Origin: Balanoglossus misakiensis
Lineage: Eukaryota; Animalia; Hemichordata
NCBI GenBank assembly: GCA_040954595.2
Contig: CM082589.2
Coordinates: 524,988-588,987 of the forward strand
DNA length: 64,000 bases
Direction: 5' to 3'
Positions 20,601-55,400 of the stretch are shown in pieces (within the stretch, counting starts at the first letter, position 1; the number at the start of each line of letters is the position of its first letter). A program made the translations under genes and the position numbers. The notes under the pieces were generated by a model that was not told where the DNA came from, did no database searches, and saw nothing but the letters and a program-made list of their open reading frames with translations.

Positions 20601-23600
20601 CTAATAATCTGTAAACAAATTATAACCTACCCGAAGTTGGTTTATTTCTTCAGCTGAGATGAAACCTTCCCCGATGGTCTCTGATGTTTCAAGCCAAGTG
20701 GTTGCAAACGTTTGCAAGTCGGCAACTTCTTGGAAGGTATCATTGGCCTACGGAACACATCAAATATGCCAAGTGAACATTTTAAGAGACAAAACTGTCA
20801 TCAGTGTGATACAATATGACCCTCTCTCTAGGACAAGTTTGTGAAATGTTTCTGACCTTAATTCCCCGCAGATTCTTTCTGCCAACCCCCCTCTTGTTAT
20901 AAATGAAAACTCCCTGATAGATTCTCTTGCAGCCAAAATGAGTGATCAAAAAGCAATGCTGATAAATTTGTCTTACCTTGGCTATGATCTTTCTCGTTGC
21001 TTCATTGTCAGGTGCATAGGGGATTTTGCCTAATAAAATGGGCTTCAAATAAGCCCAGGTGATAATGCCATTTGGACCGTTGTTGATTTGTTGGTAAACA
21101 CTTCGACAAAAGTCAGCTACAGGAAGTAAACAACACATTTTATATGAGCATTTGAATAAATAACTAGGAAATACTTTCAGAAAAAATTCAAAGTAAGGAT
21201 GACATGTGAGAGGTTGACCTGTCCATAAAAACCACCTGCTTATTATAAATAACAGGTTAGGAAAGTCCCTCGACTGGCTGTTATAGACAGGTTTGATTGT
21301 ATTATTAGCAAACTTTGAATAATTGACATAATTACTTTTAGCTTCGAGCAATTCACTGGGTATCTGGTCGCCCCTTGGTTCAACGTCTCTTTTCCGCCTT
21401 TTGCCAAATGCTGTGAAGGTTGATTCCACATCATCGTATGTGGTGACTAAATCTTCCCCACACATGACCTCTGACATGCTACTCATTGCTTGTCGTGCAG
21501 CGGTTCCGGTCAGCGTTCCTTGTCCGATTTCTGGCGGCAGTTTGTCCGTCAAACTGAAGTTCTTGACAGCATTCAGAATCTCCGGTAATTTTTCTTCCAG
21601 TGGTTTCAAAGTATCAAGAAGTTCCGTGATGCCATCCAAGTTGTCTGCTACTCCTTCGATCTGTTCTTGGATGTTTCCACTTAAAATCTGAACATAAGAA
21701 AAGTTTTCAAAAGAGAAATTCAACGTCACTTAATTGTATCGAAAACAAGTCAACTTAAAACACCACTGAACCCTGAATGCATAGTAATACAAACCTGTTG
21801 AATAATGGTGCCAATATTCAATTGTGAGATGAGTTCAGAGGTGATGTTCGCCCAGAGGTTCTGTTCTACTGTACAAATACTGTTGATTAAATCGGTGACG
21901 TTGAAGTCTTCGGGAAACACCAGGAGTTGAGATAGTTCTTCTTCATTACACACTTGGTCTGCAACTACCGTGGCATTCGGATCGAAAAACTGAAAAATTC
22001 AGGATAGAAAATGAGTAAGAAAGGTGTAGACACTCAACACAACACAACAAAACCACTTGAATATCATAATGACATGTGTCAGATTACATGTAGCTATGTG
22101 ACAAAATACCAGCTTACCGATTCAAATTTCAGAGATGCTCTCAACAAGTCATCAGCGACTTTTGGCGGGAAATTCAGCTCTTCCACAAGGAAATCTTTGA
22201 AGTCGTCTGCATTGATGACCAATTCTGATATTTGAACATCTGTCATATAAAAAATTCTCAGTAAATAAGATGATATGTTCATAGTATTCTATAATGTACA
22301 TGTAATACATATGGAAGAACAAACTATAGTTACTTGTGAAAATCTATGTAATGATGTGATACTTGGGAGTTGTGACCTACCTGGCATTTGTTGTAAGATT
22401 TCTCTCAAAACGGGCAAACTCTCAAAGGCGTCAAAGAATTCCCGAAGTCGTTGGTATTCAGGAAGATCATGCAGAAATGGTTCAAAAGTCACCAATAGTT
22501 CTCCCATTCTGTTTCAAAAATTAAAGAGTTAAGTTTTAGCATGAATGAGTCTAGATGAATTGGACAACTTTGTAAAGCTTATCCGATAGAAAGTGTTGGC
22601 CTAATGATGAAAAATTGAACGTTATATATCTTCTAAATAAAAAACATGTCTCTTACTCGATGATGATATCACCAGTTTGTTGATCATTGATCAGCAGGAG
22701 TTGAGCAGCGTCTATGCCTTCTTCCAAGGCTCCACTGAGATCTTCCCACATCTTGACAGCTCTATCCAGGAATTCCTCGCTCGGACGTAGCTCCTTCAGG
22801 TATCTCTCCAGATCTCCCATGAGCGTTGACCAATCTGGATTTTCACTGGGTGGACTGCGTACTAGAAGCTGGCATAAAATCAACGAACATCAATGAGCAT
22901 ACCAAATACTGTACATGTTCATTATGAAGTAATTAGTACAGGATCTAACATTATAAATCTTTGACTACAGGGGCCAAGTTTCTGAAAATATGTTACCTTA
23001 GCAACTAAACTTGGTGTATCAACAAAGTTCTCCAATACATCGAGCGGGACATTCACAGTGCACAATTGGTTCAATCCAAACATCACCATGGTTTCATTAG
23101 CGTCAGGAGGGAACATGATGAAGTTGTGAACTTGGTCTTCGTCACAAATAATGGGCAACACATCAGCCTCAGTCTCGATTATCTGCAGAAGCTGTAAACA
23201 GAAGATTTTGAAAATCACACACTTCAAAACATAATCAACAAAAAGCGCAGTAATAAAGGGCAACCTTTGTATGCAATTAGAATAGAAGCAGAGTATAACA
23301 AAAACCGCCACCCATCTTACCATATCCGAGTTGACGGTAGAATTCATCAGCAACCGCACAAACTCTGCGTCAATTCCCATTATGTCGGTCAGATATTTCT
23401 GGACTTCAGATGAATTTGTGAAAATTTCAGTAAAGTTGATAGGTGGACCTGGTTTGGCTGAAATTAATAAAATGAAGATGCAAACATGTATTCACTTCTT
23501 GGTCTGTTATGATTATTCGTCGAATGTTAATTCAGTGAACGATATTATAAGCTGACATGAGTCATAAACATTTTCTCAGAACTTGTTTCTCAAACTGAAT

Positions 23601-26600
23601 AAACATTCACACAAACACAATTATTTGAGACTCTGACAAAGTTGTCCCTTACTGTAGTTCAACATCAGATCTTCAATCCATCCCTGTATTAATCCAATGT
23701 ACGGCTGAACCACATCCATATTTTCCAGAACTGCCAGAGTTTCGTCATCAAGGAATGGTTCCAGATACTGCATCAGGTTGGCAATTCTATTTAGAAAAGA
23801 AATTAAACATTGGTACACTAACAAATGATGGTATTTTATAGATGTGACATCATTACACTATGTACAATAAAACACAAAGGGATTTACACACAATTGTTCG
23901 TACCTTTCCAGATCACTTGGTGTGACAACTGTCAACAGATCTGAAATGATTGGAATCATGTCCACAATCTGCAGGTCACTGAAGATTCTCGCAATTGTTC
24001 CATTCATTATCATTTCAAGACCAACAGTGGTAGTAGCTATGCTTTCCATGACGTGCGGTACAAAAGTGCTACAATTAAAGGGACCCAACTCTTCGATTGG
24101 TGCACTCCAAATATATTGAAGCTAAAATGAAAAAGGACATACATGTAAATTTGTGATTTTATCATGGTAATTGGTATTTTTAATATCAACAAGAAAGCAC
24201 ATAAATGTGTTAGTACACTGATCATAGTGAATCACTACGAGACTTGGTTAATTACTTTAACAACAGGATGCTTGTCAGGCGATATCTCGTAGGGCTTTGT
24301 GGAATGTATTACCTGTTCCTCAAAGGATTCAATATCCATAATACGCATCACGTCCTCCATAACCGCTGTTGAACCAATTCTACTCATTCCACACATCATG
24401 CTTGCGATCTCGGTCGTGTCAATATGGCCGGGTACCCCCATGGCAACCCTCAGGGCAGCCTCGTCGCACACGGCAGTTGCCACGGTTTCATTTTCCATCA
24501 GGTAGACCTCTATCATGACTGACATCCACTGAAAAGCAAAGGACAAAATACAGTATGTTCAGAAAGTTTTGACAGGAAATCACCATAGTAACATTCAGTG
24601 CGCAAAACCTTTGTGTATACATACCGTTTGGAACTTAACAGGATCAGTCAGAATAACTATGGCTGATGCCAAGACGTCCGGTAGAACTATCACTGTTTCC
24701 ATGGTGAATTCTATCATTGCTGTTAAGTTTTGCTCCATATTTACCACATCATGTAACTTGCCTGAAGAATAAAGTGACAAAAAGAAAATTATGGATTCTT
24801 CTTTGTACCTTAAATTTATAATATCAGAAAGCAGGATCAAAAAGGATTCATTAACACATACAGCATGTGAAATACAATCAAAATGTGTACTTATTTCAAA
24901 ATGTACACCGTCAGAAAATGATCTTTTATCATTTCACAAATACTAAAATACCAGAATGGACAGAGCATTTTTACCTGGCACTGTAGCAAAGTATTTATTG
25001 ACGACATCCATCGTGTGGTCTGCTCGTATCATTACTGGTTCAGTTTCTTGTTTCCAGGCAACCGTTTCACTGATCATCGGGAGCAGAGCATTACACATTG
25101 GAACACCCAGGTTGCCCAAACTATAAAATAATAAGAACAGTCAGTGCTAAAATTGCGTGTCGTGGTTGTATGATTATATTAAAAAGATATGAAATTTTTT
25201 GTAAGGTAAAAACAGCTAAAACCCTCTGGAGGAGAGAAAAACGAAACATGATCTTACCTTCCGAGCTCCGGGAATTCAAAATTCTCCATGAGATAATCTT
25301 CATTTGGGAATAAAGCTAACATGTCATGAAGATTGAAATTATTCAGTGATAGATCTTTCCCCAGAAGTTCTTCCATATTTTCTATCGCTTGTCGTAGTTC
25401 ATCAATGACTTTGCGCCACTCGACATCATCTGCACCAATGCCGTAACCATAGTTATCAGTCATCAGTTTTTCAATCTGAAAATTAGAAGGCCACAACACT
25501 TATATTGTTATTTTCTATTTGTTTTTAATGACCATTTAAAGGTAGCACCCACTGAAAATCAAACCAGTTATCAACTTTCCATGATAACAGTGGTCCAATT
25601 TGAATAGGTGACTGTTTTTTTAATGATGAACATAAAATCAAGTAGGGGTGAGAAAGAAGCGACTATACTATCAACACATCTTCAAAACTGGCCAAGATCT
25701 CTGCAAAAAACTCTACATACCTCTTGATAAAGTAACATGACATCAAACTGACTCAGGAGAAGACTGACAAGCATATCAGCTGTGGTCTCGTTAGAAGCGA
25801 TGTCACAAAGCGTCTGCTGTAATAGTATGATGTCATCGACGTCAAAGTCAGGTGGAAATTCGAAGAGTTCCGTGAATTGTTCAGGGTCACACACGGATTC
25901 TTGGAACGTGTTGATGTCCATGAGTTTGATTAGCTGTATCGAACAAAGAATGATTGAATCAGTGCTGACATCAGATTTATCAATTAGAAGTTATGGCATT
26001 GAAATCGAAAGTGGTTCTTACGTTTTCAGGTGAAACTGCAGCATTCATGAGAAGACCAGCTGTCTCCTGAGACATAAGGGTCGACAGCGAATCAATCAAC
26101 TGCGTCTTGTTGCTTATCAGGCTGGTCAGATTAAATCGGAAATCTAAACAAGAAATATGATCATGTTAGTTCACCATGTATTATGTCAGGTACCATAGTT
26201 AATCTGTTATTGGTGAGGGGAAAGATGGTTTCAACTACCCAATCTACTAACATTTCACCATCCTGACAGTCTTGAAAACCTACATTGATGTACCGGGAAA
26301 AAGAATTGGCTATCAAGACTCAAAACATACCTTCAAGTTCATCATATCTATCATTAAACCATGTTGCCAGGTTACCAATAGATTCGATGTATCCTTTGGC
26401 CATCCTCCAGAAGCTGTCATTTCTCAAAAAGGGATCCAGAGTTTCGATGACAGTTATTATCCTAAATGCATAAAAATAAATACATGTATACACATTTCAA
26501 TACTTTCATACTCACATAGGCAAACAGATTAGATAGAATAGAATACATATTACATACTAGATACATACACACACACAAAGAAATACAGACAGACAGACAG

Positions 26601-29600
26601 ACATACAAACTAAAAGCGACTTACATTTCCATCTCGTTTCCAGTCGCATTCATATATTCTTCTAAGATCAACTTTATTTCAGTGAAATCGACACCAGTCA
26701 GATCACCGAGACCTGGTGCCGCTGTTTGTAGCTGTTCAAAGAGATTGATTAATTGTTGAATGTTTCCAGTCATATCCTCCAAGTTGAATGGTCTCAGATC
26801 TTCGAGAAGGTTCGTGGAGTTGGCTGAGAACAGTAACGCCATCTGAAATGGAAATATAACAAATTTATGAGAGAGTGTCAAACTGATATTCAAAATTAAA
26901 ATAAATAATCCATTACAAAATTAACAGCGTTCCGATTTGTCCACCCCCTTTACAAAAATGAAAGAAACTTTACAAAAATCTTTAATACCCATTTCTGTAA
27001 CTCCAAGATATCAACACCAAGATCTTCTTCTGCACCCATGAAGAAACTTGTTATGTTGATATTACACATGGTTTGTTGAATTGCTGTAGAATTTAATTCT
27101 GGTGACAGAGGCATTGGTAGTGAATTGGTGAAACTCTCCAGGTTGCAAAATATGTCGTCCCATGCTCCATCATTGTAGATCTTGGCAAGCTGAAAAGTAA
27201 ACAAAATTAAAGCGAAACTTGCAGACAATGACAGTGTAATGATTTACCACTGGTAGTTAGGTGACCATTAGGAAATAAATCTACTATTGGCAAATTCTGT
27301 CCACTTTACCTGCCAAATATTGAACTGATCCATGAGGAAAGCTTGCTGTAAATCCTCTGGTGAAGTCAGTAATGAATCTTGAAGATACTGCAACAGCTGA
27401 TTCGGATCATTCATCAAGTCCATCAGATCTGTGTCTGCAAAATTTACGTCAGAAAATTTATTAGAATTCTCTGAGAACTACTGGAACAAGTCAATGAAGA
27501 AAGGGCAGGTTTAGGTACCATGCTTCTTTCGTACATTACACAAAGAACAACAGTTGTGTATGAATGAATCTTTTACACAATGATTAATGAGGTTATGGAA
27601 ATTCTCACCGTTGCCAAGGTTTTCAAAGATGGCGTCCACAAAGCCAGTGAACAGTTCAAACTGCGGTCTGACTATTTCCCAGACATCATTTGCTTTCAGA
27701 GTATTCTCCACCAATTGAAGCAGCTCGTTGATACTGGGAAACACAAAGTTAAAACAAATAAATATTTTGAATACAGAGTTATTAAAATGAAAGCAGTAGA
27801 CACACACAACAAAAATGCTTAAAACATAGCGAAAAGTTACATGGAACTTTGACATATCTACTGCCAGCAAACTTACTTGGTTGGTGTTTGGGTCAGCTGG
27901 GTTGAATTCAAATAACCTTGGAGAAAGTCCATCAGCATATCTACAGTCGTCATATCAAACGATTCATCAAGACTCGCTGGATAGCTCAGCAGGTTTTCAA
28001 GAGTATGGATCATACGCATCACACTTTGAATAAGTTCAGTGATGTTGGTTTGCCCTTCTCCAAAGTTGAATTGTGAACCAGAGGTACCGTCGAATTCATT
28101 GGCCAGCCACTGAGTTACTTGACTGATAATATCCGCATATGCAAATAACTCGTTCCATTCTGTAGAGTTGGTTTCGATGAGTAGCTCCATCAAAGTTTCA
28201 AATGTGGATAAAAGGCTGATTGTATGAAGAAGGCGAAATAAAGGAAGTTTGTGAAAATTGGGATGTTTCTGTAGAAATGGTTTGAAATCTGGCATCTCTT
28301 TCCTTTGCATATGATAGAGCAACTTTGATACATGCCATCTTTCAGTAAGACAATATCGCTTTACAATACTGACCAGAAAAGGTACAATCAAATATACTTT
28401 ACCTTTCAGGGTCAGCTACAGTCATATCGACACCAAAAGCTTCTCCAAGATCGGCCAGTATGACAGTGAAGTTGTCTTGCATAAGGGGATTTTCCCACAT
28501 GGATACAGGCATCATTGGGATTGACATGTTTGAATTCATCATATCCGTCCAAAGTGTGTACATCTCCATAACGTTTAAGATAGTCTGGGTCCAGTCAATT
28601 GGTCTATGGTGTGATTCACTTGAAAACTGCAAAGAAATATCACCGTGCAATTAACATGTACATTAAATGACCTGTCTGTAAAGGCCACCAGTCTATACAG
28701 GCCAGTTTAGGAAAGTCCCTTGACCGGCCACTATAGACAGGTTTGACTGTAAGAGCGTTAACAAAAGCTTGAAACATTCAACTTACCAGCATTAACAGCC
28801 TGTCCAATTCCAACTCCTCTGCAAGCTGTTCAGCCATTTGTGTAAAGTTCGCACCACACAACGCATCTACCATCTCACTGATATTTACTGATGACCCAAA
28901 ATCAAAGACTTCGACCAGTTTGTCACCATCGCAAACAAATGACTCCCACGTCTCCGGGTCAACAAGTTCAAAAAGCTATGTAGAGGAATAGACAACATAA
29001 TCACTCGGTATTGATAAAATTTGTGAATGGATACTGAAAAAATCATCTGACAATGTTAGAGTATGGGACAAACATCTGCTTGAACGCCAATATATTCTTC
29101 TCTGAGAAAGGACTTTATAAATTCCTTATCACAGATATTGTTGGGAAATAAGAAATAAGGACAAACCTTTTCTGGGTTGAGAGAAGCAGATAAAAGAGCT
29201 TCAGCAACATCAGGAGACAAATTCAGGGAGTTTTCAAGCATCACAATCATCTGGCTTTGATTTCTCAGGATTTCGCTGAATGTGAATTCACCATCTGTGT
29301 AGGGAAAGAGAACAACGATTTAAAGTGAGAACCAAATGTATGTAGCAAGGATTATTCAAACATTTTTGATTTACTGTAACATGCAACAAACATATAATTA
29401 AATACCTTCAAACGCATGAAGCGTCCTGATTGAGAACTCAACAAAATAGTTGAGGACGTGAATATACTGTTGCAGTTCTTTCCATTCTGAAACATCTTCC
29501 ATCTGTTCGTTAACTTGGTTTAGAAAATTCCCAATGCTGGAAAGAAAAATTCAATGGAATATTAATGTCAATTATGCCCCTGTTGAATGACAAACACAAA

Positions 29601-32600
29601 ATAATTTAGACAGTTGTTTCCACACAAAACTTTAGATTTCATTGTCATGTTTGACTAAACACATTGTGGAGGTTAAGAATTCATACTTATGTGGTTGGCA
29701 AGTATACTTACTGTCGAAGTTGTTCTTCCCCATACGAGGAAGCAATTCTTTCCAATTGCTGCATAATCGATGTTGTATTCATCGACATCAGTAGGCTCAG
29801 GTCTGGATATGGTTGTGATACAGGATCACTTCTTAAAATGTTCCATATCATATCCACAAGTGGTCTGAAACTGTCATATTAAAAAAATCAACACTTGCTG
29901 TATTGTGTGAATGTGTGTTAATTTTCTTTTATATTTGAATCCACAACTTTTGATTTAACTTCAAGCAATGACTGGGTTTATACTTTCGTCAATTTCCACT
30001 AATACTCACCTTTGAACGTCATAGTTGAGAATATTCGCAAGAGATTCTATCACATTCTCCAGTTCCTGCATGCTATTCTGGATCCATTCATCGTTTTCCG
30101 GGAATTCAACTGGTCTCTGCATGGAGTGTTCCAGATTCTGCATCAGTTCCATCATGTTCATGAAGATATCTGTCCAACTAAATGGCATATCTTCATCTGT
30201 ACTGTTCAACTGTGAAAACAGACAACAGTTAACTCCAGAGTAAGTAAAACTTAACAACAGTCATGAAGCCATTTACTTCACCACATAGCTGTACCATCAT
30301 ATCAAAATAACCCACAACTTTATACTCATTTTACAATGTACCTGTGCCAGCAGGTCCTGCAATTTAAGGTCAGCTAGTAGTTCATTCATCCAGACAGACT
30401 GATCGACAGAGCAGATCGCGTACTGTATAGCGCTCATATTCACGTTGTCAGGGAGACCAAACAGGGCATCAAAAGCTGTGTCGTTGTTGCAGATCACTTC
30501 ATACCAATTTTGATAAGTCAACAACGCATATATCTACAAAGAGACAGAAAAATATTATTGAATTTATGCAACAAGACAGAATTAAATTATTGTATTTATG
30601 CCAATACAGAGATAACACCTTTCATCATTTAGATGCCATGTCTATCATACACATCAAAGATATATAAACCCATTCTACACTATTAAATACAATGTCATAC
30701 CTTGTCAGAATTGACGGCCGCCTCTTGAATGGCCTTTACCATTTCCGAGGGAAACTCTCCACTCTTTTCCAGATATTCAGCAATGCTTTCTGGGAAGAGG
30801 TCTCCAAATGTGATATTTGAACCTCCAGAAGAACAAGTTAGCATCATTTATTACATGAACACAAACAGCATTTTCCACAATTTATCTGACAGAAGTTGGA
30901 CCCATGCCATTACCAAACCCAAAGTAGTTGGGAAAACTGAAATATTAGGGATACAAATTGGTGTTTAGCTTTATACTTACCACGCATATCTTCGATGTTT
31001 TTATTCAAAAATTCTGCAAGCCAGTTAAACGTTATCAGTATCGGTCGTAGATCTTTCCAGACAACAGAATTCTGTATCATTTCCATGTTATCGTCCAACA
31101 TTTGGAAAGCCCTGCAAGTGTGTAAAAAATATTGGTATTTGAATATTTATTGTCGCTTATTATTTTCGAGGAACCACAGATCATATTTTAGAATATGTGG
31201 ATACGACAGTTAATTACAGCAGAAAGAAAACAGGTCTTACCCATAGAGATCCGTCATTGTCTCATTACTTGTCATTCTGTCTCCAAGTTTCATGAAGATA
31301 TTCGTAAATGCCACCATTGCCGTATCCAGCCACTCCTGGTCAACAACATTTGGGGGAGACAACATGAAAGCACTTATGGCATCTACCAGGTGGCCATTGT
31401 TAATGGCCCACTCCGTCCAATTGATGTTTGGAGACGGTGATTCCAGGATTGTCGTAATCTGCAGATGGTAGAAAGCAAATTTCAAAACATGATTTGCGAG
31501 GGAACATGATTGTGGTGAGCTTGAGCAACAAGAGATTAAAATGTGAAAACAATTGATAAAATGAAAATTATGCCATATTTAAGTTAGAACCCGTAGAACT
31601 ACCTCTTGCATTATCCGCTCAGCGTCTATCAACTCCATCATCTCTTGTCCAGCAACTGTCAAGTTGACACTGCATATGAAACGTTCCACTGCAGTCAGAT
31701 TGAATTCTGTGCCAGATGGTGCCATGAAGAACGTCTGGAATTCACCATTCTCACAGAGAGTGGTGAATGGTTCAGGAGTGAAGAGCAATGCAAAGAGCTG
31801 TGAGAATAGGAGATAGATGAGTTTGATTTGAATAATGTGTTTTGATATGATATGATAATTCCCTGTGTACTGGTTTATTCAAACATGTTAGAACATTCTT
31901 CCACACAGTGCCAAAATTGAAAATCTATGATTTGCATAGGTGAGGGTACACCATTATCTTGAGTACATATACATTTATATTAAAAATTGATTCACTTTAC
32001 CTTATCAGGATAGACGACCAAATTCATGAAGAAATCAGTCAAATCCGGCACAATGTTCGCCCCATTCAAGATCTCTCTAACTTCGTCTGCATCACCCAGC
32101 AAGTCATGTATCCTAGGAAACATGATTGCTTCATCTTCTGTGTTAATCAAAAAGAACATTTTGTATTGAGTAGATGTGGTAGGATTTGGTGTAGTTAAAA
32201 CAATTTCAAAGTGTGGGAAAAACATCAACACACTGAGAGAGCTTGACATGATGTTTGAATTAAAATTGTATTTCACTAAATCAGAAACACCATTTGGAGT
32301 TTTACTTACCAGAGATCCTCTTGAGTAATTTATTCATAGGATTCACGACGACGTTAGTTATTTGCATAATCTTCAAGGACTCTTGCCATAGAGGATTGTC
32401 ATGTAACAAATTGTCCAGAACGATCATGATATCTGAAAGACTGGAAATAATGTACAATGTTAAATTAGATGGACATGAATTCTTATAGCCACACACAAAT
32501 GAGTATCTATTGGTCACAAAACAAATGTTCAACTATATCCTAAAAATATGAAGTATGAACAGAGTAATGTATATAAATCAAGTCTAATCTAGCCTAGCCA

Positions 32601-41600: not shown

Positions 41601-44074
41601 CATACTTGTATATGTGATGATACATATTGATCGTGGTCTTCACAGAATTCCATGCAGCATTATCGTCCAACATGTTTTCAACCAAATCAGTACTTCTCAT
41701 CAACATATTCATCCACCTGTAATAAATTGTAAAATTAATCCTCAGTGCCAACAAGTTTCGGCCGTTTGCATGTTACATTGATCAGATCAGTAGTACATGG
41801 GAAAGATAGGTCCCATTAAAAACAATGATGTAAATGGAAAAAATAGTATGTGTGACATTAAAATGAATATTACTCACTCTGCTGTGTCTGATACATCCAA
41901 CTGTGCCAGTATACTTTTCAATTTCAAATCCCAAAATGTAGAATTTGTGATGAAATCAGGCAGTGATGGGTAGATTGGTCCATCAAAGTCTTGTAATCTT
42001 TCCAAGTTCATTACATACTCTTCAAATGTACGGAAGAAGTCCAGCCAATCGATTTCCACGGATTCAGAGGCGTTCTTGTACAAGTCTTCCAACTGAAGGA
42101 AAGAAAAGAGAAAAGAAATGTTCAGCGATAACACAAGAATCCACCAACCTACTAAGGGCATTTATACTCTATGAGTTGTATAGAAGAACGATCATTCAAG
42201 GCATTGCACCATTTCGTAAAATCTTACCTGGCCAACAAGTTCAGCCATATATCTGTTCTTCAACAGATCATTCATGAAATCATCCGCAGATGAAGTGCAA
42301 AGAATTCTTTGTATAGAACCAACATCAGATGTATCAGGCAGATTGAGTGCCTCCCTCAACTGGTCTTCATCACATAGTGTCTCATTCCAGTTCCCAGACT
42401 GTAGAATGCCAAGCATCTTGTGGAAAAGAATTAAAAGATATAAGATACTTATATCTAGAAGCAGGTTGCAACTGGTCCAATAATGTATTCACAAAAGGAC
42501 AAAACGTGGTTTAGCTGATGATGAACAAACTTTATATCAAGACAACTGTGATTCACAATGCTTTTCCGAAGATGATATTATCAAAACATGCACCATGCAT
42601 AAAATATTGAATTCATACCTCCTGTGGTTGCATCATGAATGACATTGAAGCATCGATCAAACCTGGAAGTAGTTCTATCGATTTGTGAATCAGTTCCGTA
42701 TACAAAGTTGCATTCTCATAAAACAAGTCCATCGTCAAACCATTTTCTGCCATGAAAAGAAAATATTCAGTTGAGTCAATAATCCTGGAGTATTCTTTTA
42801 TAACACAAATGCACTCACAGCACCCAAAGAAAAATGTCTGTTCATCATAAATGGTTACACAACAAATTATTTAACTTTAGCTTTACAATTTACATCAATC
42901 AACTCTCTCTCCTCTCTCTCTCTCCTATATATGCCATACTTACCCAAAACTTCAGCCATACGCCCATTGATGTATTTGTAGACGTAGTAATACATCTTCA
43001 GATTCAACTTGATTTCATTCCAAGCTGCATTATCACCCATAATGCTTTCTCCCATCACCATGTTTCCAGCGACAAGCTCCAGCCAACTAAAAGGAAGTTG
43101 GGTAGTGATTGAAATTAATAATCACGTGAGGTTTTAATACTGAAAAAGGGGGAGCTGAGTTCAGCAAGATAAAATACTTACTTCAATGAATCCTGCATGG
43201 GAAGGTTTCCGAGCACATTTTCCATCCTAGAATTCCAGAATGTACCGTTGAAAAGTTCCAATAATGGCAAAGATGGAAAGATGGGACCACTGAAGTTCCC
43301 AAACATCTGCAGCTTCATGTTGTTTTCAACCAAAGTTCTGAAGAAGTCTAACCAGTCAATGTCAACAGGTTCAGAGTCATTCCTGAAGAGTTGGTTGATC
43401 TGTAATGAAATGGAAATATTGATGTTATGAAGCAATTTTATCAAGTATGATATCCACTGAATCAGATTAACATACTGGTATTCATAGATCTCTTACCTGC
43501 TCGTAAAGTTCAGCAATATTTCTATTCTCGACGAGATCATTCATGAGACTTTCCATGGAGGAATTACAAAATATTCTTTGCACTGATTCAATTTCCGATG
43601 CGTCTTCCAAATCTAAGAATTCTTTCAACTGGTTGGAATCACACAGAATGTCATTCCAGTTTTCCGCCATTACAATTTCCATCATCTAGGGAAGATAACA
43701 TGTTAATGATTTAGTAGTGAGAAATTATGGATATGAAACGAGTGAAGAAAGATAACTTGTTCTCAGCACACATTGTACACACCTTCTGAGGATTTGATAT
43801 TATCGTAAACGATGCATCGATGAGATCAGGCAGAATCTCGGCTGATTTCTGGATGAGTTCAATATAGACGGTTGAATTTTCAAGCAGTGAATCCATCGTC
43901 AACCCATTTTCTGAAAGAAAATACACAAGAATATCAACTGATGCACTGGAAGGAGACTTTTTAGAATGATGATCACCACCAATGACATGCAGTTTCTTCA
44001 TCATAGGCGTATCTTATTTGGCTCAACATTTACAAAACGATTTGTGAAATTCAATGAATTTTATGAGATTACAA

Positions 44075-44107
<33 letters not shown>

Positions 44108-47100
44108 CATACATACATACATACATACATACATACATACATACATACATACATACATACATACATACATACATACATACATACATACATACATACATAC
44201 ATACATACATACATACGTACATACATACATGAAGGTATGTGTACTATATTGCATTTACTCACCCATAATTTCATCCATTTTTCTATTTGTGAATTTGTAC
44301 ACATACTGATTCATCTTAAGCTGACGTTTGATTTCATTCCATCCAATATTGTCGACTAAAATACCGTCAATCATGCCCATATTTTGTACAAGAAGTTCCA
44401 ACCACCTTTGCAAAAGGAAAAAGAAAAGGTCTCAGTATAAATGTTGTAAGGTGTAGATACCAGTGGATAAATAGAAATGACAGAAATTTCATTACAGTAT
44501 ATTTTCATATTAAAAACATCTTACATGTCGGAATCGGGTGCGTACTGCATTTGTGACTGCATTGTCACCATTTCCATCATTCTGAGGATTTGCGTCCAGT
44601 TATACAAGGTCTGCCAGGTCATCGTGATATTTGGAAGTAACATGATGTTGTCTGTGAATGACTGAGCATTGGCGATGAACAGGTCCCAATCAAATGGACT
44701 GACACTGAAGTTAAGATGGACACCATTTCCAAGTTCCTGGAGCTTGGACATCTAAGACAAAAGAATTGGAAATGTATTTAGATCAAAAGTGTCAAATAAA
44801 GTTCAACACAATCTTATTCTATGTAATGGTGATGTTTTATAGCATACAGCAACTTCAGTCGATAGGTCTGATAAGTTAAATTTTATTTCTTACCTCTTTT
44901 TCTAAAACATCAACTCTGTATTCGACTTTCAGTTCGTCTGCCAGTCTCAAGTAATTAACTTGACAAAGGTCATCCATGAAAGATACGTTTGTGGTCGGAG
45001 GAAACTCAAAGAAGTAACTTCTGATGTCATCATTACACAAGAGTTCGTCTGCCGTGTGTGCTGCCATGGCATTGGTCTTAAATAAAGAGTAACATTTTAT
45101 ATGTAACATGTACAGGTTCAAGCAATGTCCAATTAGAATACCTTGAACTTTCATAGTACATTGTCATTGTATATAAGGTCACTTCCATGAACTTGTCGAT
45201 TTATAGAAGTATGGATTAAGATTACTTTTCCTAATTGGTGTAATTCATCTCGTCAAATATGCAGATTATACAGGAAGGTTAAAACGTTCTCCTTACCTTC
45301 AATTGGTCATTCAAAGTTTCCAACGTGACCTGAAGGACATCTGGGAATTCCTTCATCAGACCTTGAATACCGTGAAGAAACAATTCAGTTTCATTACCCA
45401 TGACAACCATTGGGTCCTCTTCTGTTATAGCTGTAAATAAATCACACACAAAAATAGTAAGCACAACAAAGCACTATAATATGAGTTATCACTTTTTAAA
45501 ACTAAATGATAATCCACAATAATACTCACTCTGCCAGAGTTCGAAGTGCCTATTAACTGCTTCCATCAGTGAGTTAGCAAGATTAAACATTGGTCCGGCA
45601 ATTGTCCAAACTTCTGATTGCTCCATCATTTCGCCATACATACGAATTGTCATTGGAATCCTGTGGATTAAACATCATACAGTTTAAAGAAAGAACTTGT
45701 GATATTCTGACGTCTACCAAGTCTTGCTTTCATTGCACGAGCTACAGATACAAATAAAAATTAATTCATTATATATGCATACAACACTCACATTCCCAAT
45801 CCTGAATTAACCATCTCCATGTAACTCCCTCCTGCCTTTTCCACTGCTTCCAGAAGAATTCCTTCCATTCCAGATGCATCATGACCTTCAAACATTCCGG
45901 CTGTGCGGTTGAACATCGTCATAGTGTTCTCAGCCAGTTGTGACATGCTAATTAAGAATGCCTCCCAGTTGATTGGCTCACTGCTAACATTCACAGGTGT
46001 TCCCATCACAATATGCTGAATCTGAAAGATGAAGGATTAATTTTTTTGCGTGAATATACATCTATGTCAAAGTACTTGATAAAAGAATTGTCAAGCTGCA
46101 TACTACATGTAATAAACTGATCTTTTACAGAACAAATAGTCAGGAAAATCTCCAAAAATTGGTCCTTCTGTTTATAATTTTACAAGTTCACAATGAATAA
46201 ATATGTCTTACTTTAGTTATCAGGTCGTTCATAGGATATTGGTCGGTTCCTGCGACCAAATTGTCATAATTGACTTCGCAGAGGTAGTCGTCGAAGACCG
46301 ATTGGTTGAAATTTGGCGGAAAAGTCAGCCACTGTGAACGTCGCTCAGGATCACAAAATGCGACATGCCAATCCGTTATTTGGGAGATCATAGCAACCTT
46401 TGAGGAAAAAGAGAAGAGAAATAATGTAGATGAAACGATCAACTCAGCAAGTGCGGACCGGAAAATGAACATCAACTTATCACAACCTGTTTGTCGTAAA
46501 CAACATACTCTCTGAAATATCACTTACCTTCGACGGATCAGAAACTGTATTGATGAGGGTATCAACTACGACTGGTGCGTCCTGCAGCAACATATATACA
46601 CCATCATAAAACATCATCAAGTCTTGGTTTTCCAAGTCAATCTTACCATCGACGTAATCTGTAAGAAAATTAAATCAATATATTAATATCGATCAAATTG
46701 ATTAAATAAACGAGTATCTCTAACTACATAATAAAGATAAGTATTCTAACTGTGTATCATTAGCTGTGAGTCATACAACTAGGTCCAAGATACATGTAAC
46801 ATCGCTTACCAGAAAACATCTCAAGGTGATGGTTTAATGTGTTGACCATGTCATAGATCGTCTTGACAAAAGGTTCATAATGATTCCACATTTCAGTTTG
46901 TTCCAAGGTTGGCATCATAGACACCAAAATAGCAGGAAGGATCCTGTGAAAGAATACGTTGATGTAATGAAACAGTTTGAAATTAATTCAATGTATATAT
47001 CTAAACACACACATACATACATACATACATACATACATACATACATACATACATACATACATACATACATACATACATACATACATACATACACACACAT

Positions 47101-50100
47101 ACATACATACACATACATACATACATACATACATACAATGACAAAAACATCTTTAGTAGACTTGGACTCTTACATTTCTGGTATGTCAGCACTGGTCATT
47201 CCTCCTAAGTTCTGCATGATTTCCTGCGATATTTTATTCACAATGCTTGTCATATTCATGCCATTGATCATCATCATTGTCTCTTCGACTGCTTTTCCGA
47301 TATTTGCGTTCATTTTGTTAGAATCTTCCAAATATTGACTGTAGCTCCAGTCGACGGCTACTGCAGTTGTGTTTGATCCCATTCCGTCCACCTGGTGAAT
47401 CAGTTCACCGATGAACATTTCACGTTGCATTTCTTCAAAAAGTGTCTCCCAGTTGATTTGACACAAATTATCATCAATGATTGAGAAATCAAATGAAGAA
47501 TCAACAATTGGACGGACATCAGGATTACAAACAACTTCTGACCAATCATCGACTTGGGACAGCTGCTGTGCCTGAGATTAACAAAAGGGAAATAAAACAA
47601 CAAACACTCACAAATTATAGCGTTGTTCTTCTAAACAAACAGTCAATTTTCATTGGTGCACAGGTAATTGCTGAGACACATTTATATATGTGAAAATTAG
47701 GGGCCCAGGAAACAGTGTGGTAATTTAAAAGGCAATAAAGTTGTGTACCTGTTGTGGATCCATGAACATCATCAGAACCGTTTGAAGTAAACTTTGCATG
47801 TTGGTCTGGATGTAATATATACTGGTGTAAAACCTGATAAGTTCCGTTCCGTTTATTTCCATCCTGTTTTCTGCAAACCCTGAATGGGAATACATCATCA
47901 TCATCATTATCATCATCATCATCATCATCATCAAAAACGTTCAATTGTAATGAAGTAATCATATCACTACATACCTTCCATTATCTCAAAATGCTTATTA
48001 ACCATTTTAATGAAGAGATGTTGGGATTTGATTTGGTTTTCCATTTCTGGAAACAAACCCTGCATTCCGTCAAGCATCTGGCTCATCATCATCCCAGCGT
48101 TCTCGAAAACCCTGTGATGTAAAGAGAACATTATAGAATATTCTGCCTGTAATAATGGAGAACTGGGCTTCCTCTCAATCCATTACTTTAGAATAATGAC
48201 ACCACACTTTTTGCTACCACAGGAACTAAACGAGAAATCTACTTACTCTACTATTGGCATTTCCGGGGATACTTGAAACGGTGAAGCAGACATGTTCATA
48301 GAAGCCAACATTTCCATGACGGCAACTAAATCATAATATTCCACAAAAGTCATGGTAACGTTTCCCCACATATTCAAGTTCTCTGTCACAGTTTGTGCAG
48401 TCTTCATGTACGTTTCCCAGTCGAAAGGTTCGCCGCTTGCTGGGATGTCTATCCCATTCATCAGCTGTGCAAATTTCTCCATCTGTTTAAGGAAAAAACC
48501 CAGAAGTTTCTCAGCGCATGTGAAGAATATTATTAAAGCTCAATTCTATTCACACTGTAATCACACAGTAAGATAGATTTCGTTGTCTCAATTACTGAAA
48601 ATAAACACAGAATCTATTTGAAACTAACCTGTTCGTTCATTTGGGTCTGATAAAATTCTTCTGCAAATTCTTCAGAAAGAATAGTAATGTTGATGTTGCA
48701 TAGGTACAGGTCAAACACCGTCACATTTGCTGAAGGTGGGAAATCAAACAATTCCTGGCGTCGATCAACATCACAAAACATATCTTCCAAGGCTTCGAGG
48801 TCATCTATTGTCCCCATCTAAAATTTTGAGCACAAATTACATATACAAATGAAAAAATTAAGTTTTCATATTTGAAAATATTGTGAAAGAAATAATAAAA
48901 AGATACGACAAGAAAATTCAAATGGCACATACCACTTCTTGGTCCATGAGTACTGTCATTAGTGGTACCATCAAATCAGTTGGCTGTGACATAATTGCTA
49001 TTATCCCATTCAATAGTTTCGTCACTTCCGGTTGATCACTAAATACTTCTCCTCGGGATAATGCTACAGAAAGACGGATAATAATGGTTGTAAAGTACAA
49101 AGTAAAAAAGTCATACAAACAACAATGTAGGGCAACAGAGTGTCGCAACGGATATTTTTTTCCATTAATGCCAAAAGTGTACCCTCCATTAATAATTCAT
49201 TACCTTCTGCCATTTCAAATTGTTTGTTCATCGACATCATCATGTAATGGCTATACATCACCAATGGTTCCATCAGACGCCATTCTTCCATAGTTTCCAA
49301 AGTCTGACCAATAGCCAGCATCGTAGACGACAGACTACATAAAATAAAAATAAATACACAATGGGGATAAGATAATTTTCAAAGGATTTCATGAGAAATC
49401 ACACCAATGTGGAGAAGATTGTGTATGTTGATGAGAAAATGAAGAAATATCATGGTAAAAATAATGTGAAAGTAAAATGAAAAAAAAACATGAGGGTTAT
49501 TATTTTATAATCACAATCAAACATGGCCACCAGTGACCATAACAACGACACTGGTTGTCAGGGGAGGCTACGACCACAGGTGTAATGTTTCTCAGCTTCA
49601 AGAGAATATATTATTGTACTTACGACTCTTCTAAAGTCATTGGTGTTTGCATGCCAGTCAGTTGTTGTTGCATGACTTCAGTGATTCCTCCGATATCAAT
49701 ATCTTTGAATAAATTCATGAAAATGAAGTTCCAATCCATCGGATATGTAGACAGCTCTGTTAGTTGTTGCACCATCAGCATTGACTTTATGATGAGGGCA
49801 GTATAATTCGCATATACAAGGTGTTCTGGTGTCAAGTCGGTTGCACTTGTATCCAACACTTCTTGAAATATTGTGACCTGTAAATAAAGGCAGACGACAC
49901 CAAAATATTACATCCACATTCATGTACGATATGTATGTTAACAATGTGTTCGTTGTTAAAGTCTGTTGCCATGGTATCTACATTTCCCCTACTTGAAAAA
50001 AACAACTAAAAACACCTTAAACAAATCAGCCTTAAAACAGCGATTATCGAAAGTGGTTTGCTGAGATAAATATTGATAATACAATTCTTCAAATTTTATT

Positions 50101-52201
50101 TTATTTTATAAATCTTTATGTACCACTTGTTTTTTCCAGTTATTTTGTAGATACAATGTTTTTCTTTACCTTTTCCATTATTTCATGAGAATCCCATCTA
50201 AACATGAATTCTTCCATCATCTCCTCAATATCAAATTGACAAAGGGCATTCTTGACAACCGTTACGTTGACAGTGTCTGGGTACTGGATGAAATCGCCGC
50301 AGAAAATATTGCTTATGTTCAGACCATATATCGCAATTTCCTATCACAAAGAGAGTAAATATTACACGTATTAGTCACTGTACATCAATCAAAGATCATG
50401 GAAAGTAACTTCAATCTTGACCTCTGCAACTAAACTATGGATCTTTTCATACCTCAATGTTCGCTTGGTCAGAGAATGATTCCATAATGGCAGACATTAC
50501 ATCAGGACCGAGTTCCATGATCGTCGTTGCCATCTCAACGAAGGGGTCGTCCATCATGAAATTCATAATAGCAGGACCTATGACAAGGATAAAAGAAGTC
50601 ATTACATATTGCCAAAAGTTACTGATCTCAAGATTGAAATTTTAACTATATAATATTAAACATATAGAACAAAATAGATGAGAACTTCCCATAAGATTTT
50701 ATTTGTTATTTTCCATAACAACTGGCAATGATTGAGAGTTTGTTTCTGAATAGACATGACATATTCACCTTGCTGTGATTCACAAATGAAGCCCTCTGTG
50801 ACCAAACTGCAATTGTGTTTGTGCCATTCTCCATCAGATCCGAAATTTGCAACTGCGCAGTATTTTCTCTGTGTTTCGGACGCCCAGTTTTCGTATGTGA
50901 GACTTTCTCCATTTAGCCACTGCCATTGGTCACCATCCTGGCTTGACACTAGCTTCGCTCCTATCCATGTAGTGAAGCCAATACTGAAACATAGGGCAAA
51001 TTAAACACTTTATAACATTTCTATACCTTTACATGTAGTGTGGATACTTTTCTTGAGTCACCACTGAGTTTGTTGAGTCAGTGGCACATCATATGGGCTT
51101 GGGGGGGGGGGGGGGGGGGCACATTGTCACTTACATGAGAAATAGAATTTCACATACCAAGGTCCTGAGATCCTATTTTTCACACTCATCTGGCATATTT
51201 TGTCCCACACGAGTGTGACGAGCTGTGAGTGACAAAGAAATCCCCAATTCGTGTGAGAAATAGGTTCCTAGGTCCTTGGGAGTGTGAGATTCTATTAGTT
51301 TCAAAGTGAATGTAGAATAAAAAACTGTTACTTCCATACCTCATGCTCTCCAGTAATGCCTGTTCTTCTGCGGTCTCCACGGCAACCAGATGTGAGCCAA
51401 TCACAAGGCTGTCACAATGGGAGTTGGCGTCAACCATCGTCATTGTTTCCTCCACTGGCAAATAACATGATGTCTGTTCCTTCATCCAGTTTTCTGGACA
51501 ATATCTTTCGCCTATAACAGTGGAGAAAAGGGGATACATCTTAGCTTGGTATTTGCTATGAATGATCAACATCATTTAGAAAAATTGACTGATAATTTAC
51601 ATGGAAAACTTTATTGCCAATAAAGAATAGCATTTTCTTGCAGATAATGAGCTGTGCTCAATGGCCAATTTTGACATGAGTTACTATGCCTATCGCTTTA
51701 ATAGCTTTTGATTTTCTCCCTTGAAGATGGCGAGATCTTTTGGTAATAATTTTGTGGATAATCTTTACAGATAAGACACTTACCGGTAAGTTTTCCTGTA
51801 ACCAGCATGATGATATCAACAGCTAGGTTTTCCAAGATGGCCATCTTCTGGATTGTTGGCCACAACTGACTATTCTTCATGTTCTCCTCAAACAACCACA
51901 CGGTCAAACCTGTTCCTTTGTCCATCCACCAATCCAGGGTGGTGTTAGTGTTCCCTATTCCCTGTGCCAACTGATTCCATTTATCCAGGTTCAACCGCAG
52001 CAAACTATCCAGGAATTCCGGAATATCTTCCAGGACATGAGGCGGGATGGATTGGAGACTTTCAGATAATTCTTTCACTGAGTAGTACAAATCGACCCAG
52101 TCTACATCGAATAGGTTGTCCGACCTGTCATTGTACTTGTTCAACTGAAATAACAATAATGATGATTGTTAAGGATGTTGATGAATGGTGTTGATGAATG
52201 G

Positions 52202-52296
<95 letters not shown>

Positions 52297-52312
52297 GTGA
52301 CGGAGGTGGTGG

Positions 52313-52358
<46 letters not shown>

Positions 52359-52368
52359 AATGATGATC

Positions 52369-52412
<44 letters not shown>

Positions 52413-55400
52413 AATGATGATCATGATTATGATCATGATGATCATCATCATCATGAAGAAGCACAAAAAATGATCCACCGGCAGTGGCAGTAAGAGTAAG
52501 TAGCACTTGATTTTCAACCCATATACCACATTCAAACACCAACCTTCCTGTTCAATGATGTCTGCGGTTTCAATAGTATACAAAACTGATGATATATGCA
52601 ATATTCTAGGCAAACTGGGGTTAAATTTCGCAGTGCTATCCACGAAAAATGGGCTAACGTTCGAAGAGGAAGTCCCGAGGTCAAGAATGTGCCAGGTCGC
52701 GATTCGCAATTTGTAACGAAATTGTACCATGTCTCTTTCTGCTGAAAACGAAAGCACACGTCTCTTATAAAATCTCTTCCAACCGGGTTGTTTACGATCA
52801 TTTTATGGCTTAACATCCTGTTCCTGTAATTCAATTCCTTAAATTGCAGGAAGTAAAAAGCTACCGACCTCTTTAACTACTTGAGTCATATCCATCATTC
52901 TCCAGAGTTCGTCCAAAAGTTCTGTTGCGTTCATTGTGCACAGCGTCTCCTGAACGTATTCGACATCAGCGTCTTCGGGGAGATGAAATATTTCCTCCAG
53001 AGAGTTTGGATCGCATAAAGTGGCTGCTACTTGCTCTGAATCAGTCAGAAGGGCCCTCAGAATATCTGGTGAGATAGTGGCTTGCAGAAAAACCTCAGTA
53101 AGGCCGGGATCTTCAGCAAAAAACCGGTCGACAAACCTTGTGAAATCCGAACTGTTTCGGAACAGATCAGATAACAAGATTTGGCCATCTGGGGGAAAAG
53201 ACAGCAATGAATAAATTAATATTAGATCAGTCTATTTCCCAAGAGACCAATTGAAATATAGTTAACAAGATTTCCTAAAGATACATCATCTCACAGGGAG
53301 TTAGTTCGTCCAAATTATGTATGAAAAAGTTACTAGGAATCTCTGCGCTTACCGTCATCCCTGGAATCATCAATCTTCTCGTTGAAGAACTCCGACAGAA
53401 TCCCTATCTGGCGAATTCCCTTCCTGACATTGACCCACTCAGTGGCATTTCCAAAGACCTCGTCTAGTGTGTCAATCACATGTTTGAATCTGGGGAGAAA
53501 ATGTAAAACAATACAGAATCATCAGCAAATGACAATTTCCATCAGTTTTGCCCAGTTAACTCCACCAGTCAATACATCAAAACATTTCTCTTTTCTCAAT
53601 ATTCACTCCGCACTAAAATGATATAGTCTTTTACTCACATGGCACTTTCCAAATCCAAGAATTCGGTCGAGAAGACATCATAAAGTTCCTGTAACTTCGG
53701 AATGATGTCAATGAATTCGATCAACTTGGGGAAGTCCTCCAATAATTGGCCAATATCTTGGATGTCTCCAACGCCTTCCAACAAAATGGCCAGATCATTC
53801 ATCACTTTATCCCAGTTGTATTTTCCAAATAAATTCAGTAAATCTGAAAACTAAACGAAACACGAGGGCAGAGAATTGGTTATGAAGTGAAATGACGCTA
53901 AACAAAATATATGGAAGTCACATTAAAGTCACAATGGTGTAAAAGAACAAAAAAGTTTCAGGAAAGTCTCCGTGATTTCCTTGGTTGCCTTGTCGAATTT
54001 TGTAAGTTCCCAATCTTTCTGTTCGATCATTGCATCTCAGGGCATCGTGGGTGGACTAACCTCTGTCAAGAGAAACGCCACATCGAGTTGTTGCTGAAGT
54101 TCTTCCACCACTAACGGTATTTGTGAGTCGGTAATATTACACAACGATTTCACCACATTGGTGACGTTGGCGTCCTCTTGAAACTCCAAGTATCCCGTCA
54201 ATTCCGTCTCATTGCATGCGATGGTTTTGAAACTGAAGCCAGCCAGTAAATCAAATATCTGTTGAATGATAGAAAGGGCATGTTAGTCTTTTAATCAACA
54301 TTATATATTCGTGTTTTGTTATTAGACAATATTTAATATCACTGAAGTTGACTGCAAATTGTCATATCTGATAACTGTGAGCATTGATAAAGTCTGAAGG
54401 CGACACCGATGCCGGTTTTGAAAACGGCTCAATGCGTCCAAAAGTATCGCATGGCCAAGCTTTGAATATTAGTCAACGTCGGTAAGATTTTAATAGCATA
54501 AATGTTGACATAGCACTGTGCCGACTTCTACATTATAGTGGCCGAAAGTGGAGAATATTCGACCTAAGAGGGCGCACACCAACTTACCCTGTTGATATTT
54601 ATAGTAGCATTCAAAAAGACATCCAGAATCTCTTCTTCAATCCCCGCTTCATCCCTGAGGTAACTTTTCACATATTCTGGATCTTTTAAAATATCTCTCA
54701 CTTTGTATTCTTTTCCTGAAATCCAGAAGATCACCAGTTCAAAAGAAAGATGCATGGTTAGTAATAATAACAGTTTTACTGAAAATTGGCCGAACAGAAT
54801 TAGTTTCGAGACACTGCAGGTATGAACTCGATTGAAGTAAACAACTTGACAACAGGGGGCATGTGGTGACACGCCCTTAACCGACCTTGACGTTATTTTT
54901 AGCAATAAAATGCGTAACAGACGAGCGATCGAAGAGTTCAAAGAAATTTCTGATGTACATTCTAGATAAAAGAACATTTCCCTACCTGTGAGATTTTGGA
55001 TTCCTTGATTGATTGTCGATGTCAGCTCGTTGATTGGCTGAACATTGTAAGATAAATTTCTCAACTGTTGCAACAATGTATCGTTTACAAAGAGTGGTTG
55101 AAGCTCTTCTAGTATATTTGATATTCTGAAAAAAATACAGGAATTCGGCGACGTTAGAGTTCAAAGCATGTGTGTGTCGACATTACTCGGAAACTGCATT
55201 TAATACTCTGGGCAAATCTGGAAAAAGTTCAGACTCGAGTCTTTATTTATATCTCAGCCGCCAATGCGACCTGTATATTAGCATATTACTTACTGTGCAC
55301 CTGCATAAGCTGGAATTTGATTACTTGGCGTAGTCATGTTATTTTGGCACTGGTTCTGCATATCACACATAAATGATTGCATGAACGGCATAAGGCCACT

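Follow-up and report, generated by a model that had tools for sequence, protein, structure and literature searches.

The 64,000-nucleotide window analysed here, from the hemichordate Balanoglossus misakiensis (contig CM082589.2, positions 524,988 to 588,987), carries on its minus strand a gene that is predicted from its sequence to encode a full ABCA transporter with intact ATPase motifs, in whose first extracellular domain (ECD1) a lid-and-stalk module is repeated 24 times in tandem. The gene was built by a self-trained exon parse of the minus strand, to which three corrections were made by hand, by coordinate. It extends from an ATG at 56189 to a stop codon at 9614 in 133 exons, starting about 1 kb and ending 12 kb beyond the span 21775..55126 that the original prediction had given for it. 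All predicted introns (132/132) are of the GT-AG type and measure about 80 to 724 nt (median 163), and the coding sequence, whose length is divisible by three, yields a predicted protein of 7,703 amino acids (aa) without internal stop and of about 877 kDa before glycans, within the 7,000-8,000 aa estimated beforehand. Frame-breaking junctions were looked for and none was found, the coding sequence staying in frame through the 133 exons; likewise, the exon model revealed no large intron and no second start inside the gene. We infer that the exons are probably spliced into one mRNA.

The model sequence and its hydropathy peaks place the domains in the order first transmembrane helix (TM1), ECD1, TM2-6, nucleotide-binding domain 1 (NBD1), regulatory domain 1 (RD1), TM7, ECD2, TM8-12, NBD2 and RD2, which is the order of full ABCA transporters as given in a review (PMC13161189; this paper and the others cited here are drawn on through excerpts). 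TM1 stands at the very start of the chain, and TMD1 and TMD2 (the transmembrane domains) and both NBDs all follow after aa 6112. Walker A, signature, Walker B and H-loop were found in both predicted NBDs (8/8 motifs). The parts of the gene are as follows.

56124..56189, minus strand: exon 1, start codon and N-terminal elbow helix with the LLLWKN motif, aa 1-22
55556..55649, minus strand: exon 2, TM1, aa 23-53, hydropathy peak at aa 24
55294..55429, minus strand: exon 3, N-terminal ECD1 base with C54, C75 and C81, numbered as in ABCA4
21336..55125, minus strand: the 24 D-A-B-C modules that form the array (about aa 99-5790), in 97 exons including the last, which is fused to the ECD1 base
53639..55125, minus strand: module 1, four exons, the positional equivalent of the single ABCA4 copy
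51784..53489, minus strand: module 2, in which A+B and C+D are each joined into one exon
50769..51511, minus strand: C-type lectin domain, two exons with phases 1-2 and 2-1, aa 598-726
44525..50577, minus strand: modules 3-7, divergent and Met-rich (8-12% Met)
32606..44405, minus strand: modules 8-16, the youngest block
21336..32440, minus strand: modules 17-24, old units, with two extra 2-2 exons
19656..21687, minus strand: C-terminal ECD1 base with C5803, C5848, C5986 and C6107, and RRKR at aa 5824
17990..19460, minus strand: TMD1 (TM2-6)
15775..17627, minus strand: NBD1 and regulatory domain 1, with Walker A at aa 6437, signature at 6536, Walker B at 6558 and H-loop at 6591
12036..15608, minus strand: linker, TM7, ECD2 and TMD2
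9614..11874, minus strand: NBD2, regulatory domain 2 and stop, with Walker A at aa 7415, signature at 7503, Walker B at 7524 and H-loop at 7558

Within the array, the span 55125-21795 comprises 96 exons (aa 99-5727), where about 95 in a fixed phase cycle had been predicted, and their phases run through the cycle 2-1 (D), 1-0 (A), 0-0 (B) and 0-2 (C). The exceptions are three fused exons (53188-52869, 52144-51784 and 47571-47174), two extra 2-2 exons (29870-29712 and 28215-27877) and two C-type-lectin exons (51511-51340 and 50983-50769). The 24 units measure 219-235 aa, units 18 and 19 being longer through the extra exons and the last one merging into the base, and every unit (24/24) carries one Cys pair with its members 19-27 residues apart, which agrees with the 24 pairs counted earlier. 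When each unit was scored with a hidden Markov model (HMM) built from the other 23, all 24 reached 42-221 bits, and reversed copies scored at most 10.1. The array is strongly acidic (D+E 905 versus K+R 269; net charge per unit -17 to -48), rich in Leu (12.3%) and Met (6.0%), and its 5,629 aa contain 113 N-glycosylation sequons. The hydrophobic moment is highest at 105 degrees, with a value of 0.271 versus 0.193 +/- 0.006 in five shuffles; this amphipathic signal is carried by the A, C and D exons, the Cys-pair B exon being without it. Composition and hydrophobic moment thus bear out the earlier picture of a unit of ~225 aa that is acidic, Leu/Met-rich, sequon-rich and amphipathic. A hydrophobic window in the array at aa 5186 (24625-24761, minus strand, A exon of module 22; mean hydropathy 1.99) is read as a putative buried helix and not as a membrane span.

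Units 8-15 are 34-52% identical to one another and most other units 10-25%, the closest units of all reaching 52%. Over all pairs of units 8-15 (28/28), mean synonymous divergence (pS) was 0.74, near saturation, and mean nonsynonymous divergence (pN) 0.36. The divergence of the units and these pS and pN values point to an old, coding array, and the predicted repeats are under purifying selection.

Comparison with known structures and proteins identified the source of the unit. P0001, a protein of the crinoid Antedon, is 31% identical to the model over aa 1-523, and its alignment with ABCA4 1-237 (E 4e-21) runs through both lid cysteines. A two-unit profile of six rows had ABCA4 108-233 as its best match among PDB sequences (E 1.5e-4), and a 13-row two-unit profile, in which no N-terminal first unit was included, had ABCA4 130-283 (E 1.4e-3, 177,635 PDB sequences searched); ABCA1 and ABCA7 were not among the PDB matches listed for either profile. 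The B exon alone, as a 63-column profile, matched no PDB sequence; run against proteins no longer than 2,000 aa, the B-exon profile brought up a single relative. An HMM of internal units 3-23 scored 13-46 bits on 8 of 14 ABCA1/2-type proteins (reversed maximum 10.4), and a broad unit profile, at a threshold of at least 8 bits, matched 13 of the 14. The single copy ascribed earlier to ABCA1 and ABCA4 was seen in 11 of these 13, the other two matching twice. Module 1 is the best match of the first units of relatives. On this evidence the predicted unit is homologous to the lid region of ABCA4 and its flanks, about residues 108-283, in line with the homology to the ABCA lid/tunnel claimed at the outset.

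The lid of ABCA4 comprises residues 138-271, which are unresolved in cryo-EM (bioRxiv 10.64898/2026.06.25.734683; PMC7932691), and its distal extracellular domain residues 101-300 (PMC8501128). The tunnel of ABCA2 is described as four helices bundled around a hollow that contains cholesterol, with a lid arising from the loops of the bundle (bioRxiv 10.64898/2026.08.25.746927). Because a D-type exon (exon 4) precedes the first lid and a C-type exon follows the last one, the natural unit of the array reads D-A-B-C, that is, stalk helices, lid and stalk helices, matching the distal ECD1 of ABCA4; the A-B-C-D cycle of the original prediction keeps its exon phases and shifts its register. Three repeat exons and the repeats of P0001, P0002, P0134 and P0124 were scanned with Pfam, and none of them was assigned to a family. 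PF26955, shown on many relatives in a precomputed listing, was not among the Pfam scan results. The ESM Atlas gave no usable match for P0001 360-800, and the A+B exon gave leads below 0.9 only.

Outside the array, ECD1 holds exactly seven cysteines (C54, C75, C81, C5803, C5848, C5986 and C6107), which follow the order of C54, C75, C81, C324, C370, C519 and C641 in ABCA4 (7/7), where C75-C324 is a resolved disulfide (PMC8501128). Since these base cysteines are conserved in the ABCA4 order, we infer that the array of ~5,700 aa would form a loop pinned at the base at both ends. Apart from the Cys pairs, the array has just two cysteines, C5123 in the D exon and C5297 in the C exon of module 22. 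Two-unit AlphaFold models (6 and 13 rows) had a mean predicted local distance difference test score (pLDDT) of 58.1 and 51.8, with only the lids at 70-88, and in model 1 the matches to helical hairpins bring residues ~5-45 together with ~150-195 (D and C helices). A Foldseek search of these low-confidence models gave no match at E 0.001 and no ABCA chain among the rows listed, and VIA gave best Z values of 7.5 and 5.6, to generic helices, likewise with no ABCA chain among the rows listed; the fold-search null is uninformative because the lid is unmodelled in the ABCA4 structures. A furin-type motif, RRKR at aa 5824 (21336-21687, minus strand), lies in the ECD1 base just after C5803; similar furin-type motifs occur there in Antedon P0134, and of three ABCA12 rows compared, two carry such a motif a little before that cysteine. 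Cleavage at RRKR alone would not free the array, because the array stays on TM1.

The original prediction spoke of lid modules alone and missed a C-type lectin cassette inside the array. Its two exons form a phase 1-1 insertion at the D-to-A junction of module 3 and are skippable in frame. The second exon matches Pfam Lectin_C (E 8.6e-8, 33.3 bits, above the curated cut-off) and the first one does so with E 0.056, and the domain has six cysteines (602, 613, 630, 697, 713 and 722). EPN or QPD plus WND are the usual calcium/sugar motifs of C-type lectins; EPN, QPD and WND were looked for in the sequence of the lectin domain and none was present. A lectin domain was found in none of the relatives (0/313 proteins). 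In the crinoid Antedon a WAP domain occupies the equivalent junction, just before the A segment of unit 4. An additional segment with four cysteines precedes the second-last unit in three protostome giants (P0088 2883-2995, P0044 3235-3352, P0028 2953-3057), and there the unit spacing is about 340-360 aa in five relatives; this position-specific element near the base is absent from the window's gene.

The relative set comprises 313 proteins, with cluster members, taken from the best 120 of 319 and the best 150 of 449 matches and from further homologue searches, and units were counted with an HMM built from the window only, at a cut-off 2 bits above the reversed maximum. When other invertebrate proteomes were searched, as the original prediction had suggested, arrays came to light in several phyla. 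Among 220 proteins of at least 700 aa, with isoforms and fragments counted separately, at least 3 units were found in 42, at least 5 in 18 and at least 9 in 9. Carriers occur in a crinoid, molluscs, a nemertean, chelicerates, a millipede, decapods and insects, and include Antedon (P0001 and P0134), Tubulanus (P0088), Saccostrea (P0044), Patella (P0124), Sinanodonta (P0130), Tachypleus (P0139), Dermacentor (P0287), Chamberlinius (P0123), Vespula (P0161), Cherax (P0002), Solemya, Bulinus and Biomphalaria, with P0176, P0276 and P0028 as further giants. By this HMM, P0176 has 16 units (and 20 Cys pairs), P0088 15 and P0044 14, and every fetched relative has fewer units than the 24 found here. In total 217 units were collected across the set. 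The unit spacing is regular in all arrays, about 220 aa, and in two-unit stretches from several phyla the four cysteines are invariant (4/4 in 13/13 stretches).

The first and last units are those kept recognisable across phyla, and in decapods it is mainly these two that can still be recognised, which is expected if both ends dock on the base. Crinoid units match model units 1-2 and 17-24, roughly in order, which suggests that the flanks are old and that the centre expanded later. Seven relative contigs are 77-97% filled by one open reading frame (ORF). Six of these, intron-free and 3-30% longer than the ORF, join an N-terminal/TM1 match, a long ectodomain and the ATPase core, and long continuous arrays lie on the intron-free contigs of P0276, P0028, P0176, P0142 and P0149; spliced transcripts with continuous arrays are thus implied in relatives. 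Dermacentor andersoni is annotated in pieces, and two other Dermacentor species have whole models. In their source databases the relatives are labelled uncharacterised, hypothetical or ABCA1-like. Judged by these predicted proteins, the same design is present in other phyla and the gene is not unique, being a member of a bilaterian-wide ABCA12/13-type group. Full-text literature searches, which did not extend to papers behind subscription (the ABCA13 gene paper of 2002 among them), found no paper on a repeated ABCA ectodomain module. The claim of an undescribed architecture accordingly stands as far as the papers and Pfam families searched are concerned, but the architecture itself is widespread.

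In a tree of the core (ECD1 base, TMD1, NBD1 and R1; 28 rows chosen from 54, 873 columns), the model was sister to Antedon P0134 (100/99), and the invertebrate giants and vertebrate ABCA12/13 formed one branch (100/99), a position that by itself would point to an echinoderm or hemichordate as the probable source animal; a 54-row FastTree separated this branch from the ABCA1/2-type in the same way. Placement of the model with nine ABCA1/2-type rows was rejected (p-AU, from the approximately unbiased test, 0.00018; this group was defined with an earlier tree already at hand), and monophyly of the invertebrate giants alone was weak (87/77). The vertebrate comparison included a single partial ABCA13 row, human ABCA12 and ABCA13 being left out, and on this tree the predicted protein belongs to the ABCA12/13 branch, apart from the ABCA1/2-type.

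As for function, we put at about 45% the probability that the protein would export lipid at the expense of ATP, with the looped array serving as a tethered, built-in acceptor or scaffold in which the lipid is held. In such a pump C75 would bond C5803, as C75 bonds C324 in ABCA4, and the array would leave and re-enter the base as a closed loop. Each D-A-B-C module would fold as amphipathic stalk helices under a disulfide-pinned lid, and instead of following one another end to end the copies would be arranged laterally, or as a ring or spiral. Lipid that the pump loads on the luminal or outer side would be taken up by the apolar faces of these stalk helices, and the array would replace an outside acceptor such as apoA-I, or help to pack lipid into granules as ABCA12 does. 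The lectin domain, and WAP in the crinoid, would be exposed add-ons at the stalk-lid junction. The unpaired cysteines of module 22 and the pairing in model 1 are weak hints in favour of self-contained D-C stalk modules.

Several observations weigh against this proposal. Amphipathic helices describe plain helical solenoids equally well, and the wide variation in unit number and sequence (10-25% identity) would be no less fitting for a spacer than for a binder. The strong acidity of the array and its heavy predicted glycosylation count here too. For the most part, the unit finds no match inside the ectodomains of vertebrate ABCA12, and for that reason ABCA12 biology may not transfer. Both two-unit AlphaFold models are poor (mean pLDDT 58.1 and 51.8), and their stalk registers differ, model 2 pairing ~190-216 with ~380-405 and closing the stalk under the lid. 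Finally, the crinoid Antedon relative is entered in RefSeq as two proteins, P0001 and P0134, which lie on contigs of equal length.

The strongest competitor, clearly less probable than the lipid-holding array and still a serious candidate, is a sorting, spacer or adhesion scaffold without lipid, in which only the base tunnel carries lipid and the acidic, glycosylated loop targets the pump to a vesicle or granule, sets the luminal spacing or binds partners. The 113 sequons, the unit net charge of -17 to -48 and the lectin and WAP insertions suit such a role, as does the free variation in unit number and the filling of the vertebrate loop with repeats unlike the unit. The excerpted report on ABCA13 (PMC7948424) describes its long region as required for function: mouse ABCA13 without the long N-terminal region was reticular and not vesicular, and the region was needed for cholesterol internalisation. 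However, the lid Cys pair (4/4 invariant, 13/13 stretches) and the amphipathicity exceed what a mucin-like spacer needs.

A long conduit, formed by stacked modules whose hollows join into a spiral or hairpin tube carrying lipid far from the membrane, is in our judgement unlikely. Derivation of the unit from the hollow tunnel/lid region of ABCA4 speaks for it, and so does the regular spacing of about 220 aa. Yet the loop is anchored at both ends, and a straight conduit must therefore turn back and is hard to build; moreover, a module that starts and ends at the stalk base would add sideways, not on top, and insertions of 50-130 aa (lectin, WAP and extra exons) are tolerated inside the array. 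The original prediction had offered a conduit or a reservoir, and while a straight 24-unit conduit is difficult to reconcile with a loop held at both ends, the reservoir or scaffold fits better.

Still more doubtful is that the locus yields several products, such as a module-skipped shorter pump and/or a separate TM1-plus-repeats protein, with the 7,703-aa form minor or absent. Whole D-A-B-C blocks and the lectin cassette preserve the frame, the Carassius abca12 models differ in 225-aa steps, RefSeq models are split in Antedon and Dermacentor andersoni, and short ABCA13 forms appear in the excerpts of PMC7948424; on the other side stand the intron-free contigs of relatives with long continuous arrays, the whole models in two other Dermacentor species and the lack of a large intron or second start in the gene. 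An assembly artefact or decaying duplicated DNA has a negligible chance, with units at most 52% identical, synonymous sites saturated, every exon length in register, 96 exons without a stop and the same design in other phyla; assembly duplication in particular was ruled out by the 52% identity of the closest units and the near-saturated synonymous sites of units 8-15.

One may go further, although here we lean against rather than for the idea: the ancestral bilaterian ABCA12/13 may have come with a lipoprotein of its own, in the form of 10-24 modules filled by the ATPase and set in a ring or spiral that is closed at the base, of which vertebrate ABCA12/13 ectodomains would be eroded or re-duplicated array descendants. 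In that case the copies in invertebrates would provide soluble models, already at hand, of the ABCA lid, which is unresolved in ABCA4/ABCA2 cryo-EM. The lid is described as the longest unresolved part of ABCA4, with many variants of uncertain meaning (bioRxiv 10.64898/2026.06.25.734683), and direct validation of lipid hand-off through the ABCA ectodomain is said to be lacking in the excerpted review (PMC13161189). Hundreds of natural, diverged copies (217 units) allow the module to be aligned in depth and supply candidate fragments, soluble ones, for structural work and lipid assays. The four-exon, frame-preserving cassette illustrates a way in which ectodomain size is tuned, and the gene directs attention to a branch of ABCA12/13 in invertebrates that has been overlooked and whose members are split up or called ABCA1-like in databases.

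Some further features of the window were recorded. Intronic microsatellites lie at 52174-52442 (GAT x89), 44078-44230 (TACA x38) and 47007-47137 (ACAT x34), the first of them in the longest intron of the gene (724 nt), and a first-pass exon over the GAT repeat (52741-52302) was dropped as spurious. NBD2 of the model is ~10 aa short before the Q-loop in comparison with relatives (11127-11326, minus strand), and a micro-exon was possibly missed; a search of that interval on the minus strand gave no convincing candidate. At the left end of the window, a CUB-domain exon (324-740, minus strand; Pfam E 8.1e-18) and a neighbouring ORF with an EGF-like Cys pattern (about 1294-1689, minus strand; no Pfam match at 1e-4) are taken to be part of another gene that runs off the window. 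Upstream of the ABCA gene, two 289-nt copies that are 99% identical (56492-57076) lie about 300 nt before the start codon and, in this promoter/5' region, represent either an echo of the assembly or a duplication of recent date, and a few weak exon-like stretches are found at 59131-59730 and 61518-61672 (minus strand).

Among known systems, vertebrate ABCA12/13 share the branch and an oversized ECD1 between the same base cysteines. Their last lid unit is detectable, with 35 bits in lizard ABCA13 (partial) and 28 bits in lamprey, and for a reptile/bird ABCA12 profile of the last lid unit hhalign gave 90% (E 1.4e-6). The predicted 7,703 aa exceed every ABCA protein fetched, the next being of 7,012 aa; this is lungfish ABCA12, whose annotated length overlaps in size with the protein described here. 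In contrast to the vertebrate proteins, ECD1 consists here of 24 clear copies of one module in a four-exon cycle, whereas most vertebrate internal ECD1 windows did not rise above reversed controls, one internal fish segment being suggestive with 65% in hhalign; vertebrate internal HMM scores of 5-11 bits were discounted, since reversed controls reached 7.0-13.5 depending on the set. The long region of human ABCA13 is reportedly encoded partly by one 4.8-kb exon.

Carassius gibelio abca12 models (P0060-P0077) differ in length by steps of exactly 225 aa and contain near-identical Cys-free repeats. Homology of these young cyprinid repeats to the unit was looked for and not found (hhalign at most about 2%), and the common period of 225 aa may be due to chance. 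The ABCA12-like ectodomains of lamprey (P0306) and quail (P0045) show recent internal duplications of their own, with other periods, so the loop evidently keeps expanding by tandem duplication. As far as the excerpts go, ABCA12 loads glucosylceramide into lamellar granules and the oversized ECD1 of ABCA12/13 is already known (PMC13161189), and no homology or conserved domains are reported for the long region of ABCA13 (PMC7948424). What appears to be new here, as far as the searches reached, is the tandem array of the lid-and-stalk module, the ABCA pump type and the oversized ABCA12/13 ECD1 being known.

ABCA4, ABCA1, ABCA7 and ABCA2 share with the predicted protein the topology, the base cysteines and one lid-and-stalk copy, and ABCA1 hands lipid to the free acceptor apoA-I (PMC8501128). 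Unlike the present array of 24, proteins of the ABCA1/2-type usually have one copy, and they fall on a different branch. An ABCA1-like protein of Strongylocentrotus (P0218) has two unit copies and falls with the ABCA1/2-type rows, which reflects either a small independent duplication or an annotation effect.

Exchangeable apolipoproteins such as apoA-I and apoE are built of tandem amphipathic repeats. Their likeness to the array is one of functional analogy only, in that tandem amphipathic helices could serve as a lipid acceptor for an ABCA pump; no sequence relation to the unit was found and none is claimed. In contrast to apoA-I and apoE, the unit described here is ~225 aa long, predicted to be glycosylated and to bear a disulfide-pinned globular lid, and would be tethered at both ends.

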